A stretch of 13,127 nucleotides of DNA, taken from contig CBFGWV010000128.1 of NCBI GenBank assembly GCA_965652545.1, forward strand, positions 1-13,127, written 5' to 3'. A program made the translations under genes and the position numbers. This DNA comes from an uncultured Candidatus Competibacteraceae bacterium (GTDB lineage Bacteria; Pseudomonadota; Gammaproteobacteria; Competibacterales; Competibacteraceae). Under the pieces are notes generated by a model. That model saw only the letters and a list, made by a program, of their open reading frames with translations, ran no database searches and had not been told where the DNA came from. Shown here piece by piece: positions 1 to 10,764 of the stretch (position 1 is its first letter; each line of letters starts with the position of its first letter).

Positions 1-3000
1 CTAGTCCACCGGGTCCTCGGGCGAGAAGTTGCGCCGGGTTTCGGCATCCAGCCGAATATCCTTGAACGTGTCCTTGTCGAGCTGGCGCAGTGCCTTGAGC
101 ACGTTGTTGAGCGTATCCCAGATATCGTGATCCAGTCGCAGCTTGTGGCTCATGGCCCGCACGACCGGTAGCAGCGATGACTCGATGGTGTTGGCCAGGC
201 TGCCCAGCAGCAGCTCCACGCCGGGCACAGGGTGGACTTCCACCTGCGGCGGTGTCCTGGCCAGGACATCGACCGACTCCCGCAGCTGGCTGAGGATTTG
301 CTCGTCCACGGGCTTGGCGGCGGCTTTGTGGATGGCCTCGGCGATGTGGTCGACCTGGCCGCCGAGGAAGTTGAGCTGCGCAATCAACCGGCTGGTGGGG
401 TCGTCTTCGCCGCCCAGGGCCTGGCGGCGCACATAGCCTTTCTTGATCTGATCCCATCGCGCTTGCTGCTCGGGGGTGGCATTGCCGCGCAACTCGGCCA
501 GTTTGAGCAGGTTTTCTTCCGCACCGATGGTCAGGGTCTGCGCCTCGCCCACGTAGTGGTCGGTGACCAGCGCGTCCAGTTCGTCCTCGTTCATGGCCGC
601 GACGATCTTCTCCGCCAGTCGGTTCATGTTGCGGTAGGAGCCTTGCAGGCGGAACGGGGGCTCGGTGCGGTAGGCATCGTCCTGGGCGGCGGAGGCGATG
701 TACTGCTGGTTCACGGCCAGCAGCACCTGCTGCACCTTGAACAGGTGTTTGAGTACGGCGACGATCTCGTTGATCTCGGCCGTGGAGTAGTTGTGCCTCA
801 GTTCGCTGGATGCCACCTGCTCGCCGCGCGCCATGCGCACGAGCTTGTAGAAGTCGTCCATCTCGCGGGTGGCCAGCGGGGCCAGGGCGGCGTTGGAGGT
901 GAGCGTGTTCTCGATGTAGCTGAGGCGAAAGGCGTCCTCATGACCGCTGAGCACATCGCCCAGGTTGTAGACGTCGGCGCGGTTGGCCAGCATGTCAGGG
1001 ATCTTGAACGCCTCGCCGGATTCGGTGTACGGGTTGCCGGCCATGACCACGCAGAATTTCTTGCCGCGCAGGTCGTAGGTTTTCGCCCGCCCGCGCCACA
1101 CGCCCTCGATGCGTCGCTGGCCGTCGCACAGCGAGATGAACTTCTGCAACAGCTCGGGGCTCGAGTGCTGGATGTCATCCAGGATGAGCATCACGTTGTT
1201 GCCCATCTCCAGGGCGAGGTTGAGCTTCTCCAGCTCCTGGCGGGCGGCGGCGTTGGGCGCGGCAGCTGGGTCCAGCGAAGTCACCTCGTGGCCGATGGTC
1301 GGGCAGTTGACCTTCACGAACATCAGCCCCAGCCGGCTGGCGACGTACTCCATCAAGGTGGTCTTGCCGTAGCCCGGTGGGGAGATTACCAGCAGCAGGC
1401 CCATCAGGTCGGTGCGTTTGCCCGCGCCCGCGGCGCCCATCTGTTTGGCCAAGTTGTCGCCGACCAACGGCAGGTACAAGTCGTTGATCAGCTTGTTGCG
1501 TACGAAGGACGTGAGCGCTGTCGGCTTGAACTCGTGGATGCGCAGTTGCCGCTTCTCGCGCTCGATGATGGCGTGCTTGAGCGCGCGGGCTCGATGGAAG
1601 CCGGTGACCTGGACGTTGCGATGCTGCGCCAGGCGGGCGATGAACGTCGGCAGGCGCAGATGCAGGCTGCGCTCGTGGATCAGCGGATGCTGGCCCAGCA
1701 GGCCCTCGACCGTGGCGTCGACCACCGCATCGCTGATGCTGCGCTCCAGGCGCTCTCCGGTGACCAGCAGCACGGCGGCCTCGGGTATCACCGGCAGGAA
1801 CCGCGCCTGCTTGGAGGCCGAGGTCTGACGGACGAAGGCCTCCAGCCAGGCCTGGGCCAGGCGCAGGGCCTCACCGGGCAGGTCGGCCAACTCGCCCAGG
1901 CCCTTCTGGAGGGCATGGCGTTGGTTTTTGCCATCCAGGTGGTGCAGCAACTCGTCGGCGAGCTTGCGGGCCGCGCCGCTGAGCACGAAGTGCGGGTTCT
2001 CGGCCTGCAATTCCTCCGCCAGGTAACGCCCGGCCAGGGGTAGCTCGTCATCCCCAATGTCGATGCCATGGCGCTCGATGAAGCCGGCGAGCGCGGCGGT
2101 CAATTCCCGCCCCAGCGCTTCCAGGACATCGCCCTGGCCGAACACGCTCGTCAGGCGACCCAGGCTCTCGCCTTTGAGCGACCAGCGGCGGACTGAGGCG
2201 AGATCCTTGTTGCCGGCCCAGAAGAGCAGGGCGACGCTGCGCGGCAACGGGCCGTAACGCAGCAGCCCCGCGGTGTCGCGCAAGTGGATGAGTTTCTCGA
2301 GGATGCGCGCCGCGTCGTGGTCGTGCACGCCGCGCTCGTAGCCCTCGTCGTAACGGGCCTCGGCAAAGCGCTGCACCCGCTTGACCAGGCCGTCCTCTTC
2401 GAGCATGGCTTGGCGCAGGATGTCCATGCTCAGGTCGTCCTGCCCGGCTTCGGCGGCGGTCAGCACGCTGTCGGCCAGGTATTCGCCGCGGTACACGTGT
2501 GCCGTCTCCGACACCAGGGCCTGCTCCCAGAATGGGCGGGTGGCCTCCAGCTCCGGGTCGTCGATGGCCTCGAAATAGTCCGTGCCGGCAATGTGCAAGG
2601 CCAGGCCGTCGCCATGCGGCACCAGGGTGAGATCCGGCTCCTGCGTGTTGACGCTGAAGCGGTGACGGCCCAGGCGAATGAGGTTGCCGCCCTCCTCGTA
2701 GATGTCCAGCTTGTCGCGCAGGGCGCGGACCGCCTGGTCTTGGGCGGATTTGATGCGACCGGCGATATCCTCGGCGCGCACGCTTTCCTTCAGCGTGCGC
2801 AACTCCTCGACGATACCGCGCACTTTCAGCGCCATGGCGTCGGAGGCGAAAAAGCCGTTGAGTGCGTCGACCGAATCCAGTTGCTGGGCGCGGCGGGTCA
2901 GCCCTTGCAGAATGCGCTCGGCGGCCTTGGCCAGGTTCTGCGAGCGGCGTTGCTGGGCATCCAGCAACTGCTGCTTGCGGGTCTCGAATGCCTCGTAGAT

Positions 3001-5244
3001 CTCCTCCCGCTTGCCGGCCAGGTCGGCGGCAAACTGGTCGTGCTCGCCGAAACGGCCTTCCATCTCCTCCAGTTGCAGCAATAGCCGGGAGAGCTGGTCG
3101 TCGGCTTTGTCCGGTGTGTCCGCCGCGGCCAGGGCGCCGGTGACGCTTTGCCCCAGCAGGCGGAACTGGGCGCCGAACTCGGCCACGGACTCGCGCGCGC
3201 CAAGTGCTTTGCGCTTGAGGTCGGCGCCGGCCTTGGCCTGGTTGAGCCGGCCGAAGCAGTTGGAGATGCGATCGAGAATCTCGGCGCGGGCGGTTGCATC
3301 GTCCACTTGGAGCTCGTTGAGCACCTCGGTGAGCAGATTCAGCCCCTCGCCGATGGCGTCCAGCGCGCTCTGGATGGGCTTGAGATCGACCCGCCGCTCG
3401 ACTGTCTCCAGTGCCTGCGCCTGGGTGTCGATCTCGCTCAGATAGGGGGCGAGGGCAGCCTCGCCGAGCAGGAACTGCACCGTGTGTTCGCTGACGGTGC
3501 CGGTGGCCTCGATGACCTCGGCCTCCAGCGCCTCGACCTGTGCGATGTCGATATGACGCAGGTCCTTGAGCGAGATCAGCGTGCCACGCTGGCCGCGCAG
3601 GCGGGCGAGGGCCTGCACATAGCCGTCGATGCTGTCCCAATCGCCCCGCCGGGCCTGGCTGAGGATGTCGCGTTGCGCTGCCTGGGCCGCGTTGACGGCC
3701 TCCTGGGCGCGGCGGCGGATGCTCTCGACCTTCTCGAACTCATCAAGCACCTGCTCCGCGGTGGCGCGGATGGTCTTGAGGTCGTGTTCCAGCGCCTCGG
3801 CCGCTTCGCCGCCCAGCCAGTGGTAGGTGTCCAGCACCCGCGTGGCCGCCGCGATAAGGTCCTCATAGGTGCCGAGGCTGGGTCGCTGGGCCTCGATCAA
3901 CCGCGCCACCGAGTATACGTCGGAGATCGCCCGTACCAGCTCGGCATTGCCCAGCCGGGCCAGCGGCGAGCCGTCGGTGGGCTGTGCGGCGGCGTGTTCA
4001 TCACTGAAGAACGGCGTGCGCCACACCTGGAGGTTGTGCACCCGCGTGGGCTCGGCCTCGGCGCGGAACAGCACCATGTGCCCGTCGGCGAGTTGGGCGT
4101 AGCCGTTGGTCACCAGCGGGTTGGCCAACGCCTTGCGAATGAGGTTGTAGGAGAGCAGGACGAAGCGCCCGTCCACCTCGTGATAGAACACGTACAGCAC
4201 GTCCTCGCCGTTGGGCGAGCGGATCGTGCGCTTGTAGTGCATGCCGGCGACATCGGTGTCGAAGCGCTTGGTTTCGCCGGACTGGAGATAATAGCCACCC
4301 GGAAAGATGAGCCCGTGGTCCTCCGGTAACTGGATACACGCGGTGCCGATCTCGTCGATGCGGTCCACTTGGTGGGTGCGGGTGTTGAAGACAAAGTAGC
4401 GCGCCTGGCGCTCGCGGTAGGGCAGGATGCGCAGCACGATGAGCGTGCCGACCTGTGCGTACTGGATGTCGGCATCCTGCAAGGTCTGGTTACGGTCCTC
4501 CACCGGTTCGGTATACAGCCCCTCGCCGGTCTCGGTGTTGTCCTCGACCTTGATCGTCAGCGTGCCGCCCAGGCATTCGACGAAGACCGTATTGAGAATA
4601 TTGATGTGCGGGTGCTTGCCCAGGACGTGCTGTTCGCGCCCGGTGCGCTGCCATTCGAAATCGTGCGAGGCCGGCAGTACATTGTCCGCATTGCCACGGT
4701 CGTCGATGTAGCGCACGCCGCCATCGGGCGCCACCGCCCAGCGGAAGACCTTCAAATCATCGAAGGTACTGCCGGTCTGGAACACCGCCAGCAGCTTGCC
4801 GGTGATCCGCCGCAACTGCACCAGGCGGGCGTTCTTGTAGTACTTGTAGAGCTCGTGAAAGTCGCGGGTGAAGCCGGGGTCATCGAGAAAGCTGCCCTCG
4901 CGCTCCACCGCGTCGAGTTCCGGGCCAGTCTCGGTCAGGTTGAAGCGGTGCAGGGAGAAGACATCCGCGACCTGGGTTTCGGTCTTCAGGCCGATGAACA
5001 CGTTGTAGCCGAACAGCAGCAACTCGCCCACGGCGACGATATCGCGGGGCACACAGTTGTGCTCCGTGCGTACCCGCAGGCTGCCGGCCACGGCCAGCTC
5101 GGTGCTGCCGAAGGTCTCCAGGCGGCGGGCGTTGAGACGCTCGGCCTTGTGCTTCAGCCCGCTGCCCTGCGACTCGAGGCGCTTACGGATGATCTCGTAG
5201 GCGCCGCCGGCATCCAGTGTCTGATCCTGCTTCTCGTCGGCCAC
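1..5244 (-). CDS. Giant 1747-aa cytoplasmic protein translationally coupled to the flotillin gene. It has an N-terminal ~400-aa non-coiled domain, ~900 aa of coiled-coil/helical region and a C-terminal MoxR/AAA_5-like AAA+ ATPase module. Function unknown.
   Basis: A complete 5.2-kb ORF runs from a GTG start at 5244-5242 (with an AGGAG ribosome-binding site, RBS) to a TAG stop at 3-1. The first ~330 codons read by eye show strong GC3 codon bias, and the protein composition is non-degenerate. The P-loop ISPPGYGKTT sits at nt 1357-1386, and Walker B reads MLILDD at nt 1174-1191. A MoxR-like sensor-1/arginine-finger block reads VVMAGNPYTESGEAFKIPDMLANRADV. There is no signal peptide or TM segment. 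The product name is an inference from these motifs only. Confidence 0.85.
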   Translation of the reverse strand: MADEKQDQTLDAGGAYEIIRKRLESQGSGLKHKAERLNARRLETFGSTELAVAGSLRVRTEHNCVPRDIVAVGELLLFGYNVFIGLKTETQVADVFSLHRFNLTETGPELDAVEREGSFLDDPGFTRDFHELYKYYKNARLVQLRRITGKLLAVFQTGSTFDDLKVFRWAVAPDGGVRYIDDRGNADNVLPASHDFEWQRTGREQHVLGKHPHINILNTVFVECLGGTLTIKVEDNTETGEGLYTEPVEDRNQTLQDADIQYAQVGTLIVLRILPYRERQARYFVFNTRTHQVDRIDEIGTACIQLPEDHGLIFPGGYYLQSGETKRFDTDVAGMHYKRTIRSPNGEDVLYVFYHEVDGRFVLLSYNLIRKALANPLVTNGYAQLADGHMVLFRAEAEPTRVHNLQVWRTPFFSDEHAAAQPTDGSPLARLGNAELVRAISDVYSVARLIEAQRPSLGTYEDLIAAATRVLDTYHWLGGEAAEALEHDLKTIRATAEQVLDEFEKVESIRRRAQEAVNAAQAAQRDILSQARRGDWDSIDGYVQALARLRGQRGTLISLKDLRHIDIAQVEALEAEVIEATGTVSEHTVQFLLGEAALAPYLSEIDTQAQALETVERRVDLKPIQSALDAIGEGLNLLTEVLNELQVDDATARAEILDRISNCFGRLNQAKAGADLKRKALGARESVAEFGAQFRLLGQSVTGALAAADTPDKADDQLSRLLLQLEEMEGRFGEHDQFAADLAGKREEIYEAFETRKQQLLDAQQRRSQNLAKAAERILQGLTRRAQQLDSVDALNGFFASDAMALKVRGIVEELRTLKESVRAEDIAGRIKSAQDQAVRALRDKLDIYEEGGNLIRLGRHRFSVNTQEPDLTLVPHGDGLALHIAGTDYFEAIDDPELEATRPFWEQALVSETAHVYRGEYLADSVLTAAEAGQDDLSMDILRQAMLEEDGLVKRVQRFAEARYDEGYERGVHDHDAARILEKLIHLRDTAGLLRYGPLPRSVALLFWAGNKDLASVRRWSLKGESLGRLTSVFGQGDVLEALGRELTAALAGFIERHGIDIGDDELPLAGRYLAEELQAENPHFVLSGAARKLADELLHHLDGKNQRHALQKGLGELADLPGEALRLAQAWLEAFVRQTSASKQARFLPVIPEAAVLLVTGERLERSISDAVVDATVEGLLGQHPLIHERSLHLRLPTFIARLAQHRNVQVTGFHRARALKHAIIEREKRQLRIHEFKPTALTSFVRNKLINDLYLPLVGDNLAKQMGAAGAGKRTDLMGLLLVISPPGYGKTTLMEYVASRLGLMFVKVNCPTIGHEVTSLDPAAAPNAAARQELEKLNLALEMGNNVMLILDDIQHSSPELLQKFISLCDGQRRIEGVWRGRAKTYDLRGKKFCVVMAGNPYTESGEAFKIPDMLANRADVYNLGDVLSGHEDAFRLSYIENTLTSNAALAPLATREMDDFYKLVRMARGEQVASSELRHNYSTAEINEIVAVLKHLFKVQQVLLAVNQQYIASAAQDDAYRTEPPFRLQGSYRNMNRLAEKIVAAMNEDELDALVTDHYVGEAQTLTIGAEENLLKLAELRGNATPEQQARWDQIKKGYVRRQALGGEDDPTSRLIAQLNFLGGQVDHIAEAIHKAAAKPVDEQILSQLRESVDVLARTPPQVEVHPVPGVELLLGSLANTIESSLLPVVRAMSHKLRLDHDIWDTLNNVLKALRQLDKDTFKDIRLDAETRRNFSPEDPVD
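805..1500 (-). other. AAA+ ATPase module of the giant protein, MoxR/AAA_5-like (approx. aa 1250-1480)
   Basis: GPPGxGKT-type P-loop (SPPGYGKTT, Lys at nt 1363-1365). Walker B hhhhDD with the catalytic Glu replaced by Asp (nt 1174-1179). The block DDIQHSSPELLQKF parallels MoxR DEINRAPPKTQSAL. AGNP...TESGE...IPD..ANRAD parallels MoxR TQNP.EQEGTY.LPEAQLDRF. Domain boundaries are approximate. Confidence 0.6.
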
Positions 5245-8395: not shown

Positions 8396-9682
8396 ATGGC
8401 CCCAGTGAGTCTGCTGACCGATCGGTTGCGCACCAGCCTGTGGTTCGTTCCGGTGATCATGGTTGTCGCCTCGGCACTGCTTGCCGCATTGCTGCTGTGG
8501 CTGGACGGGTTTCTGGGCGCGCTATGGCAGGGCGGCTGGCTCTCGCGCCTGCTTGGCGGCCTGGGCAGCGACCGGGCGACCGGCATGCTGCAGGCGATTG
8601 CCGGGTCGATGATCACAGTGGTCGCGCTGGTCTGCACCCTGACGACGGCGGCGATCAGCCAGGCCAGTGCGCAGTACACATCGCGGGTACTGCGCAGCTA
8701 CCTGCGCGACCGGATCACCCAGGCCGTGCTCGGGGCGCTGGTGGGGGTGTTCGTGTACTGCCTGCTGGTGTTCGGTGCCATATCCACTGATGGCGAACCG
8801 GCGGTGCTGGCCGTCCTGGGCGCCGTTTTGCTGACGTTGTTCGCCGTCTCGTTGCTGGTGTATTTCGTCCATCACATCGCTCGCTCTTTGCAGGCCTCGA
8901 GCATGGCCGAGGCCATCGCGCTGGAGACCCAGGCGGCGGTGAACCGGCTCTATCCGCCGGACGGCCGGTCGGGCCCGCAAGACGGGCCGGCTCTCATGGC
9001 GCCAGTGCATACGGTTCGGGCGCACTACAGCGGCTACGTGGAAATCTTCGACCACACGGCACTGTGCGAACTGGCGCGGGAGCTCAAGACGGTCATCCAT
9101 GTCCGCCGCGCTGTGGGCGAGTTCATCACCGCCGGTGATGAGATCCTTACCCTGTGCGGGGGCGATGCGCCGGATGAGACACAGGCCGCGCGCCTGGCGC
9201 GGGTCGCGGTGCTGGGTGCCGAGCCGACGCTGGAGCAGGATGTCGGCTTCGGCATTCGCCAGTTGGTGGATGTCGCGCTCAAGGCCTTGTCGCCGGGCGT
9301 CAATGAAACCACCACGGCGATTATCTGCATCGATTGGTTGGGGGTCATTCTGCGTGAGCTCGCCGAGCGGCCGTTTCCGTCGCCCCGGCTCGAAGAGGAC
9401 GGCGAGCTGCGGGCAGTGCTCACCAAACCGGCCTTCAGTGACCACCTGGCGGCGGGGTTCAACCAGATCCGCCAGAGCGCAGCGAGCAATGTCGCGGTCA
9501 TGGTGCGGCTGCTCGATGTGCTGGGCGGCATGGTCGACGCGGCCATGCAACACGATCGCCAGAGCGCGTTGACTGCCCAGATCGATGCCCTGGAGGCACT
9601 TGCCGAGCGCACGATCCACTGGCCGCCCGATCGCGAGCCGGTCATGGCGCGCGTCGCCCGGCTGCGCGAGCGTCTGGGTTAG
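8396..9682 (+). CDS. DUF2254-family predicted membrane protein (428 aa). It has ~4 N-terminal TM helices and a C-terminal soluble domain. Function unknown.
   Basis: ATG at 8396 has an excellent RBS GGGAGG (8385-8390) with a 5-nt spacer. The ORF-track start at 8303 adds an Arg/Cys-rich N-terminus with no RBS. The N-terminus LRTSLWFVPVIMVVASALLAALLLWL and later helices are hydrophobic. Conserved-looking blocks TLEQDVGFGIRQLVDVALKALSPGVNETTTAI and IDWLG resemble what I recall of the DUF2254 (PF10011) signature. That recollection is not verified. Confidence 0.75.
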   Translation: MAPVSLLTDRLRTSLWFVPVIMVVASALLAALLLWLDGFLGALWQGGWLSRLLGGLGSDRATGMLQAIAGSMITVVALVCTLTTAAISQASAQYTSRVLRSYLRDRITQAVLGALVGVFVYCLLVFGAISTDGEPAVLAVLGAVLLTLFAVSLLVYFVHHIARSLQASSMAEAIALETQAAVNRLYPPDGRSGPQDGPALMAPVHTVRAHYSGYVEIFDHTALCELARELKTVIHVRRAVGEFITAGDEILTLCGGDAPDETQAARLARVAVLGAEPTLEQDVGFGIRQLVDVALKALSPGVNETTTAIICIDWLGVILRELAERPFPSPRLEEDGELRAVLTKPAFSDHLAAGFNQIRQSAASNVAVMVRLLDVLGGMVDAAMQHDRQSALTAQIDALEALAERTIHWPPDREPVMARVARLRERLG

Positions 9683-9789
9683 CCAAAAACTTTTTCGAGC
9701 GCGCGCTGCCAACAGGCAAGGACCTGTTGCCCGGGACTCGATGTGGAATGGATCATCCGCACGCGGCTGCTGCCGTGTTCACGCCGCCT

Positions 9790-10764
9790 ATGAACGGTGC
9801 CCGCCTGTCAGTGGCACTCTGCTGCGTGTTGACCGGTTGTGGTGGAGTACAGTCCGCCCTGGCCCCGGCTGGCCGCCAGGCCGACGAGGTGGCGACGCTG
9901 TTCTGGGCGATGTTGATCGCGGCGGCCGCGATCTGGCTGCTGGTGATCGCCGGCGCCCATTGGGCCTTGCGTGCCGACCCGGCGCGCTATGGGGAACGCG
10001 CAGCGGGGTGGATCATCATCGGCGGGGGCGTCGTCTTTCCGGTGACTGTTCTCGCCGCTCTGCTCACCTATGGCCTGAGCCTGCTGTCGCAGGCCGACGC
10101 CGAGCCGGCACTGACGGTGCGGGTGAGCGGCGAGCAGTGGTGGTGGCGTATCGGCTATGTGCATGAGGCGTTCGATGCGCCAATCGAGAGCGCCAACGAG
10201 ATCCGCGTGCCCGCCGGCCGGCCGGTGGCGTTCGAGCTCGATAGCCCCGATGTGATCCATTCGTTCTGGATCCCCTCGCTGGGGGGCAAGCTGGACATGA
10301 TCCCGGGGCGTACCAACCGGCTGGTGCTGACGCCGTTGGAACCGGGCCGTTATCGCGGCGTGTGCGCCGAGTTCTGCGGTACCGCCCATGCCCTGATGGC
10401 GTTCGACGTGGTGGTCATGCCGTCACGGGATTTTACGCGTTGGTTGCGCGCCCAAGCCGCGCCGGCACACGAGGCCTCGGACGAGCCGGCCAGACGCGGC
10501 CGCGAGTTGTTCCACAGCACCGGCTGCGCGGCCTGCCACACCGTTCGCGGGCACACCGAGACCGGGCGGGTGGGGCCGGACCTGACCCATGTCGGGACGC
10601 GTGCCTCGCTGGGTGCCGGCACTCTGCCCAACACCCGCGACAACCTCACGCAATGGATCGCCTCGCCGCAGGCCATCAAGCCCGGTGCCCTCATGCCCGC
10701 GTTCGCCATGCTGGCGCAGGAAGAGATCGACGCCCTGGCCGCCTACCTGGCCGGTTTGGAATGA
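9790..10764 (+). CDS. coxB: Cytochrome c oxidase subunit II with a fused C-terminal mono-haem cytochrome c domain (caa3-type subunit IIc). It is a probable lipoprotein.
   Basis: The CuA centre motif HSFWIPSLGGK...CAEFCGTAHALM lies at nt 10363-10398. The haem c motif CAACH lies at 10525-10539. There are two TM helices before the cupredoxin domain. The start is uncertain. ATG 9790 gives a classic lipoprotein signal MNGARLSVALCCVLTGC (lipobox LTGC) but has no Shine-Dalgarno (SD) sequence. Alternative starts are ATG 9748 and TTG 9727, which has AAGGA 4 nt upstream. The stop TGA at 10762-10764 overlaps the coxA ATG. Confidence 0.9.
   Translation: MNGARLSVALCCVLTGCGGVQSALAPAGRQADEVATLFWAMLIAAAAIWLLVIAGAHWALRADPARYGERAAGWIIIGGGVVFPVTVLAALLTYGLSLLSQADAEPALTVRVSGEQWWWRIGYVHEAFDAPIESANEIRVPAGRPVAFELDSPDVIHSFWIPSLGGKLDMIPGRTNRLVLTPLEPGRYRGVCAEFCGTAHALMAFDVVVMPSRDFTRWLRAQAAPAHEASDEPARRGRELFHSTGCAACHTVRGHTETGRVGPDLTHVGTRASLGAGTLPNTRDNLTQWIASPQAIKPGALMPAFAMLAQEEIDALAAYLAGLE
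10525..10539 (+). other. CXXCH haem c attachment motif (CAACH) in the C-terminal domain of subunit II
   Basis: The sequence reads tgc gcg gcc tgc cac, in frame with coxB. Confidence 0.8.

Follow-up and report, generated by a model that had tools for sequence, protein, structure and literature searches.

A flotillin-like operon and the predicted AAA_5-type module of a DUF3686-family ATPase in a Candidatus Competibacteraceae bacterium

A three-gene operon that ends in a large ATPase

We analysed a stretch of 13,127 nucleotides (nt) from an uncultured Candidatus Competibacteraceae bacterium (contig CBFGWV010000128.1 of assembly GCA_965652545.1), referred to below as the window. Its minus strand carries a tight three-gene operon, in the order YqiJ/YuaF-like membrane protein, flotillin-like SPFH protein and, in last position, an AAA+ ATPase of the DUF3686 family, which is the subject of this report (Table 1). 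The original prediction, made from the DNA alone, had placed a MoxR/AAA_5-clade ATPase module with an Asp-Asp Walker B at nt 805-1500. The motif blocks that it listed all fall in one minus-strand reading frame of the ATPase open reading frame (ORF), where this interval corresponds to amino acids (aa) ~1249-1480 of 1747. The product has more than 5500 homologues, with 51-73% identity over the full length among the matches listed; plus-strand ORFs overlapping the same interval were rejected as being without support. A near-identical protein in NCBI/ENA (P0001) is listed at 100% identity, although at least one residue is different: aa 1230 (nt 1555-1557, minus strand) is E in the window and Q in P0001. 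The contig L001 also stops some 900 nt short of the window end; the window therefore derives from an assembly that is closely related but not identical.

Only 11 nt separate the flotillin-like gene from the start of the ATPase gene downstream of it. In the flotillin-like protein, Band_7 was recovered with an E-value of 9e-11 from the N-terminal 229 aa searched alone, the full-length protein giving nothing in Pfam. The 208-aa membrane protein encoded by the first gene, which is also called as a gene in L001, has no Pfam or NCBIfam match, and its designation as YqiJ/YuaF-like (NfeD-type) is based on its architecture, its position and the account of Ravi et al. (PMC11237479). When the operon region was scanned for promoters and terminators, no signal exceeded the shuffled expectation.

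Both the family and its operon have already been catalogued (Pfam DUF3686) and published, and the ATPase of the window is an ordinary member of that family. Ravi et al. 2024 (PMC11237479) described the operon computationally, proposed a role in membrane dynamics, reported that abbreviated versions are widely distributed and noted an association with phospholipase D. The supplement of that paper lists the architecture 'Betapropeller+Coiled-coil+AAA-ATPase', which matches the present protein, and we see no difference in kind between the 'beta-propeller + coiled-coil + AAA+ ATPase' operon described there and that of the window. In the searched text and supplement of PMC11237479, neither the Asp-Asp Walker B nor an AAA_5/NorQ-like fold is mentioned, and the term 'MoxR' does not occur in the supplement.

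A family scan of species-representative genomes confirmed at least 571 coding stretches. Synteny was then sampled over 80 loci of such genomes and five others, 70 loci having enough upstream DNA. A flotillin-like SPFH gene lies directly upstream of the ATPase gene and on the same strand in 65 of these 70; it is found within 6.5 kb in two more and is absent in three. Loci L023 and L065 have the flotillin-like gene at a distance of 5-6 kb from the ATPase. Identity over the SPFH domain amounts to 57-77%, and tblastn detected relatives of the small membrane protein upstream of the flotillin gene in 47 loci. The SPFH-ATPase synteny spans Pseudomonadota, Myxococcota, Acidobacteriota and a metagenome-assembled genome labelled Clostridia, while the RefSeq annotation of plasmid pQBR103 and of a Streptomyces (Actinomycetota) plasmid gives a hypothetical protein, an SPFH/flotillin protein and a 'DNA repair ATPase' in the same order. 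No VWA domain was detected among the genes of the window, and eight annotated neighbourhoods likewise lack a VWA gene. The absence of a VWA partner from the operon, one of the claims of the original prediction, is therefore borne out, whereas the context that it called unusual for the clade turns out to be a highly conserved one, made of the flotillin-like SPFH gene and the YqiJ/YuaF-like membrane protein gene.

In three loci the operon is adjoined by genes for PspA_IM30 and DUF2170 (YjfI/CesT-like) proteins, namely L001:12734-13868, just beyond the window and on the strand opposite to the operon, L003:4021-5180 (Teredinibacter) and L006:15835-16732 (Alkalilimnicola). These genes are upstream and co-directional in Teredinibacter, downstream and convergent in L001 and Alkalilimnicola. 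Overall, DUF2170 was detectable in 19 of 84 loci.

The operon also occurs on pQBR103, a 425-kb megaplasmid of Pseudomonas fluorescens SBW25 (L086, NC_009444.1:87142-106284). There, yjfK/L/M/C-like genes (DUF2491, DUF350, DUF1190 and glutathionylspermidine synthase family) lie directly upstream of it, and a MvaT/MvaU gene and a phospholipase D gene are located nearby. Plasmids of Streptomyces, Deinococcus and Hymenobacter likewise carry DUF3686-family ATPases.

Architecture of the protein and predicted fold of its AAA+ module

With the full-length protein, Pfam matched DUF3686 (PF12458) at aa 30-475 (E 3e-205, 682 bits over 446 of 448 positions), DUF7902 at aa 597-679 and one AAA+ domain at aa 1285-1407. 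This arrangement fits the DUF3686 family, which features an N-terminal DUF3686 domain, a helical region and a C-terminal AAA+ module. Structural models were computed with AlphaFold2 for aa 1-1200 (predicted local distance difference test score, pLDDT, of 85.8) and for aa 1180-1747 with 78 sequences (mean pLDDT 79.6, exceeding 90 over most of the core). A helix at aa 15-45 is modelled ahead of the beta-rich domain of aa 50-410, itself probably a beta-propeller, and this N-terminal head is the candidate partner- or substrate-binding part of the protein. The ~430 aa of long helices that come next resemble, in the model, spectrin-type antiparallel bundles and not a simple two-stranded coiled coil. 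A Pfam scan of aa 851-1200 alone gave no match. The chain contains a single AAA+ module (aa ~1245-1545, core and lid), and the invariant block LQGSYRNM of the lid possibly constitutes sensor 2. Conservation within the protein is lowest over the last ~120 residues (24% identity), where confidence in the model is low as well. The module had been described as sitting at the end of a giant coiled coil; instead, a beta-rich head, spectrin-like helices and beta and helical domains precede it, and ~200 helical residues follow. In profile searches, these C-terminal helices (aa 1546-1747) also showed weak similarity (E-values of about 1e-3) to the signalling hairpin of chemoreceptors (methyl-accepting chemotaxis proteins), which is probably a compositional or coiled-coil artefact.

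The module displays the features of the AAA+ superfamily, namely a Walker A, an hhhhDD at the end of strand beta3, a sensor-1 Asn, an Arg finger and a C-terminal helical lid, and its nucleotide site is intact and highly constrained (Walker A K/T, Walker B D-D, sensor-1 Asn and Arg finger). The arginine finger is presumed to be R1422 of the ANRAD motif from its placement in the model. Its equivalence with the arginine of MoxR LDRF was deduced from the motif, the hhalign alignment of the two proteins ending three residues short.

The modelled core runs from beta1 (1283-87) through the P-loop, alpha1 and beta2 (1308-13) to a conserved 18-residue loop and alpha2 (1332-47), continues with beta3 (1351-56), alpha3, a beta-hairpin (1378-91), beta4 (1397-1403) and N1404, and is completed by alpha4 finishing at R1422, beta5, the helical lid and more helices. 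The beta-hairpin is the pre-sensor-1 hairpin, predicted with high confidence as two DSSP strands at aa 1378-1383 and 1386-1391. The beta2-alpha2 loop, P.[LI]GH.V.S[LI]DP..AP[NS]A (aa 1315-1332, listed at window positions 1099-1152, minus strand), is near-invariant and confidently modelled as non-regular structure. Its start, P..GH.V, aligns with 'MPADVMGHSV' of MoxR, and the loop may line the ring pore or bind a partner.

The fold modelled for the module is that of the NorQ/CbbQ-midasin-dynein (AAA_5) group. Its nearest solved structures belong to the AAA_5/MoxR class: Foldseek matched NorQ chains with an E-value of 2.6e-6 and a TM-score of 0.57 (target-normalised), and CbbQ with a TM-score of 0.60, 239 of the 267 CbbQ residues superposing, core and lid together; the values for RuvB were 0.37-0.46. 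When the module was searched alone against Pfam, AAA_5 came out on top with 33.5 bits (E 5e-8, profile positions 3-125 of 139, gathering threshold 22 bits), followed by AAA_22 and PF00004 (AAA) at 31.2 bits each and RuvB_N at 20. AAA_3, which represents MoxR proper, reached 13 bits (E 0.09) against a cut-off of 27. Of the predicted MoxR/AAA_5 assignment, the AAA_5-type fold is hence retained and MoxR proper is not.

Neither the whole protein nor an 88-aa consensus of the family, which starts at Walker B and extends slightly beyond the Arg finger, found any match among PDB sequences with phmmer, so that sequence alone cannot place the module. A family profile matched only the P-loop-to-beta2 segments of Rix7, NVL, p97 and RuvB in the PDB, and these hits were rejected as a basis for the clade, their alignments covering 33-67 residues only. 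Against a MoxR gene product (L084:16907-17962), hhalign gave an E-value of 2.2e-4 over 116 columns with a probability of 45%. The alignment extends from the P-loop through LILDDIQH/LLADEINR, the hairpin and AGNP/ATQNP to IPDML/LPEAQ, and the helix-2 hairpin segment of MoxR aligns poorly, with gaps. FtsH obtained a better E-value (2e-7), yet over 33 columns only, at the P-loop. The MoxR parallels that had been qualified as 'residue for residue' thus correspond to real motifs and are statistically weak, in view of the hhalign E-value and of the consensus that has no PDB match.

In the model, D1356 is the last residue of strand beta3 and D1357 comes directly after it, and hhalign pairs LILDDIQH with LLADEINR of MoxR, placing DD opposite DE. 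The Asp-Asp pair is thus found where Walker B canonically has hhhhD[E], with Asp for Glu, as originally predicted. It is present in 120/120 homologues, in 84/84 loci of species-representative genomes and in 145 of 147 informative representatives of clusters at 50% identity, the remainder being one DN and one aberrant alignment. Walker A, the sensor-1 Asn and R1422 are as fixed as the Asp pair, which is a hallmark of the family and not a lesion. The AAA core shows 81% mean identity to 77 homologues, versus 24-60% elsewhere in the protein, and the module is 62-72% identical across Proteobacteria, Actinomycetota, Deinococcus and Bacteroidota. In a single-sequence search against 1.84 billion representatives, no more than 898 proteins were retrieved at E<=1e-3, which marks the module out as a tight, isolated family and not a drifting copy of a common AAA. 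DnaA (LLIDDIQF) and STAND NTPases also carry hhhhDD and are slow, regulated ATPases, and by analogy the 'slow switch' interpretation of the Asp pair is plausible.

Several differences set the protein apart from known systems. NorQ and CbbQ (AAA_5; PDB 9qh4 and 6l1q) are ~260-aa proteins that work with separate VWA proteins, NorD and CbbO, and have a DE Walker B, whereas here the module forms part of a 1747-aa chain that has its own head and stalk, no VWA gene is nearby, the Walker B is DD, the helix-2 beta-hairpin is missing from the prediction and sequence identity is 15-16%. MoxR proper has in common with the module the local motifs P..GH.V, D[DE]I[QN][HR]..P and NP.E..G...P (hhalign), but its helix-2 hairpin segment corresponds to a loop and a helix here, and a VWA or DUF58 partner is lacking. 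Midasin/Rea1 and dynein concatenate six modules per chain, against one here, and neither the MIDAS domain of midasin nor the microtubule-binding domain of dynein is present; the architectural resemblance is an analogy and not a demonstrated homology.

Table 1. Genes of the window and features of the DUF3686-family ATPase
Feature	Residues (aa)	Window position (nt)	Strand	Remarks
DUF3686-family AAA+ ATPase gene, 1747 aa		1..5244	-	GTG start at 5244, stop at 1-3; from ORF list and translation
N-terminal DUF3686 domain	30-475	3820..5157	-	One helix, then a ~26-strand beta-rich domain (aa 50-410)
Long-helix region	415-850	2695..4002	-	Includes DUF7902; helices up to 58 residues
Small beta domain and helical domain	855-893 and 919-1162	1750..2694	-	AlphaFold2 DSSP; between stalk and AAA+ module
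AAA+ alpha/beta core	1245-1430	955..1512	-	Most conserved part of the protein
Walker A / P-loop SPPGYGKTT	1288-1296	1357-1383	-	Invariant in 120/120 homologues save one T-to-M at the last position
Walker B MLILDD	1352-1357	1174-1191	-	D1357 in place of the usual catalytic Glu
Pre-sensor-1 beta-hairpin, RRIEGVWRGRAKTY	1378-1391	1072-1113	-	Two DSSP strands between alpha3 and beta4; aligned with MoxR hairpin region
AGNPYTESGE block	1402-1411	1012-1041	-	
Sensor 1 AGNP, N1404	1402-1405	1030-1041	-	End of strand beta4; aligns to ATQNP of MoxR; N and P invariant
ANRAD	1420-1424	973-987	-	R1422 at end of helix alpha4, invariant
All-helical lid subdomain	1431-1545	610..954	-	AlphaFold2 model; contains invariant block LQGSYRNM
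C-terminal helical extension	1546-1747	4..609	-	First ~80 residues conserved
Flotillin-like protein gene, 728 aa		5256..7442	-	N-terminal transmembrane helix, SPFH/Band_7 domain, long coiled coil
Multi-transmembrane protein gene, 208 aa		7487..8113	-	First of operon; C-terminal soluble beta-rich part; 44 nt upstream of flotillin-like gene
DUF2254 predicted membrane protein		8396-9682	+	Divergent from operon
COX2 domain fused to C-terminal cytochrome c		9727-10764	+	
COX1 ORF, at least 789 aa		10761-13127	+	4-nt overlap with COX2 gene; runs off window end

A candidate remodeller of flotillin scaffolds

Flotillin/SPFH cages and PspA (ESCRT-III-like) polymers have a central part in how bacteria organise and repair their membranes, and AAA+ machines can couple at the membrane to an SPFH cage, for which HflK/C-FtsH is the precedent, or to an ESCRT-III (PspA-family) polymer. 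We know of no bacterial ATPase that remodels flotillin/SPFH cages or PspA polymers, and according to a 2025 review a Vps4-like ATPase for bacterial PspA 'appears absent'. Very widespread and exceptionally conserved, the DUF3686-family ATPase is an obvious candidate for this missing machine, since its gene follows directly on a flotillin gene in nearly all cases.

We propose, with a confidence slightly above even (a probability of about 0.55), that it acts as a ring-forming, ATP-driven remodeller or regulator of flotillin membrane scaffolds, and in some genomes of PspA/YjfJ scaffolds, using its own head and stalk as an adaptor. The actor would be a large cytoplasmic protein composed of a beta-propeller-like head, a spectrin-like stalk, a helical domain, the AAA+ module and C-terminal helices. 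By analogy with NorQ and CbbQ, the module would assemble into a ring and, with a single module per chain, any ring must be a homo-oligomer. Binding and hydrolysis of ATP, probably slow or partner-stimulated, would drive the assembly, disassembly or other remodelling of the flotillin scaffold on the inner membrane face, the PspA/YjfJ scaffold being a possible further target in some genomes. The beta-propeller head and the stalk would fill the adaptor role held by a separate VWA protein in MoxR-type ATPases. Support for a role on scaffolds comes from the synteny (65/70 loci) and the 11-nt gap, from the PspA/DUF2170 neighbours in L001, L003 and L006, from the gene triad of pQBR103 and the Streptomyces plasmid, and from the independent operon report by Ravi et al.

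HflK/C-FtsH and Vps4-ESCRT-III, which couple an AAA+ machine to an SPFH cage and to an ESCRT-III polymer respectively, are functional analogies; compared with FtsH and Vps4, the present protein has no protease domain, MIT domain or transmembrane anchor and falls in a different AAA clade. What is new here, namely the predicted NorQ/CbbQ-like fold, the invariant Asp-Asp Walker B and the lack of a VWA adaptor, provides a testable hook. A more detailed version of the proposal is tentative and, in our estimation, doubtful: a homo-hexameric ring of the NorQ/dynein type would use six propeller-tipped arms to grip flotillin cages, and co-encoded PspA polymers, so as to assemble or dismantle them, with the Asp pair holding hydrolysis off until a partner is engaged. 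If true, the ATPase would be a bacterial functional counterpart of Vps4 or midasin that belongs to a different AAA clade and dispenses with a VWA adaptor.

Several observations weigh against a NorQ/CbbQ-like remodeller of flotillin scaffolds. Literature searches on DUF3686, PF12458 and 'DNA repair ATPase' together with flotillin or SPFH found no experimental work. The ATPase has no adjacent flotillin gene within the fetched flank in L005, L082, L083 and P0049, the flotillin-free loci being those of some Sorangium and Labilithrix genomes and of a Methylococcales contig; since flotillin is absent or distant in some genomes, the partnership is not obligatorily operonic. Regarding the fold, the helix-2 beta-hairpin insert does not appear in the AlphaFold2 model, in which the conserved 18-residue loop and an uninterrupted helix (aa 1332-1347, predicted with pLDDT >90) stand in its place. 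At the level of sequence profiles, Pfam confirms an AAA+ module yet cannot separate AAA_5 from classical AAA, because the two match about equally: 18 of 18 diverse family members match both, with nearly equal best E-values. Finally, the P-loop-to-beta2 segment is nearer to classical AAA proteins (p97, NVL and FtsH), so that the P-loop neighbourhood is classical-AAA-like and the rest of the module MoxR/AAA_5-like.

These last points are also those on which a threading unfoldase of the classical or HCLR type could be argued, a machine that would pull polypeptides, such as damaged membrane proteins retained in flotillin microdomains, through a pore at its centre, as FtsH, p97 and ClpX do. The family profile meets the PDB only through the P-loop-to-beta2 segments mentioned above (E about 2e-5), the best hhalign E-value is that of FtsH, although it covers 33 columns, PF00004 scores as well as AAA_5, RuvB comes close behind NorQ in Foldseek, and the highly conserved beta2-alpha2 loop sits at the position of pore loop 1. 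We nevertheless judge an unfoldase to be quite unlikely, and less so a nucleotide-state switch with little or no turnover, in which ATP would control oligomerisation or the binding of partners, as it does in DnaA or STAND proteins, and no mechanical work would be done. An Asp pair fixed throughout the family and an LDDIQH reminiscent of the DnaA motif would suit such a switch, which is still unlikely given that the sensor-1 Asn and the Arg finger, the residues of hydrolysis in trans, are as invariant as those of binding, and that an Asp can still serve as general base.

The plasmid-borne copies raise the question of a conflict system, anti-phage or other, with the large coiled-coil ATPase as sensor or effector. 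The family is carried by megaplasmids such as pQBR103 and by Streptomyces and Deinococcus plasmids, a phospholipase D gene is near the operon in pQBR103, an association also seen in PMC11237479, and there are weak matches to IetA/IteA, confined to the P-loop. These matches amount to 14 bits in PADLOC (IetA, P-loop only) and to 17 bits against a cut-off of 510 for the NCBIfam IteA model; moreover, the 62-72% identity of the AAA module across phyla is unlike that of fast-evolving defence genes, synteny with membrane-scaffold and PspA genes is stable, and Pfam scans revealed no nuclease or other effector domain, all of which makes a conflict system improbable. The databases for their part name the family after DNA repair, Pfam describing DUF3686 as 'ATPase involved in DNA repair' and RefSeq giving 'DNA repair ATPase' as the product name. 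We found no evidence for this name, which has no visible basis: no paper in its support was found, Pfam detected no domain of the DNA-binding, nuclease or helicase kind, the genes conserved beside the ATPase gene encode membrane proteins, and the RuvB-like similarity is confined to the generic AAA+ core. A function in DNA repair is thus hardly credible. All four explanations were judged less likely than a remodeller of membrane scaffolds.

Remaining genes of the window

The plus strand carries genes for a DUF2254 protein and for cytochrome oxidase subunits. DUF2254 is absent from all 84 related loci and is probably unrelated to the operon, and the cytochrome oxidase cluster is not kept beside the ATPase in other genomes. 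A link between the ATPase and these genes, comparable to that between NorQ and NorB, was considered and rejected, DUF2254 occurring in no other locus and the genes lying on the opposite strand. Because the COX1 ORF is longer than COX1 alone, it possibly encodes a COX1-COX3 fusion.

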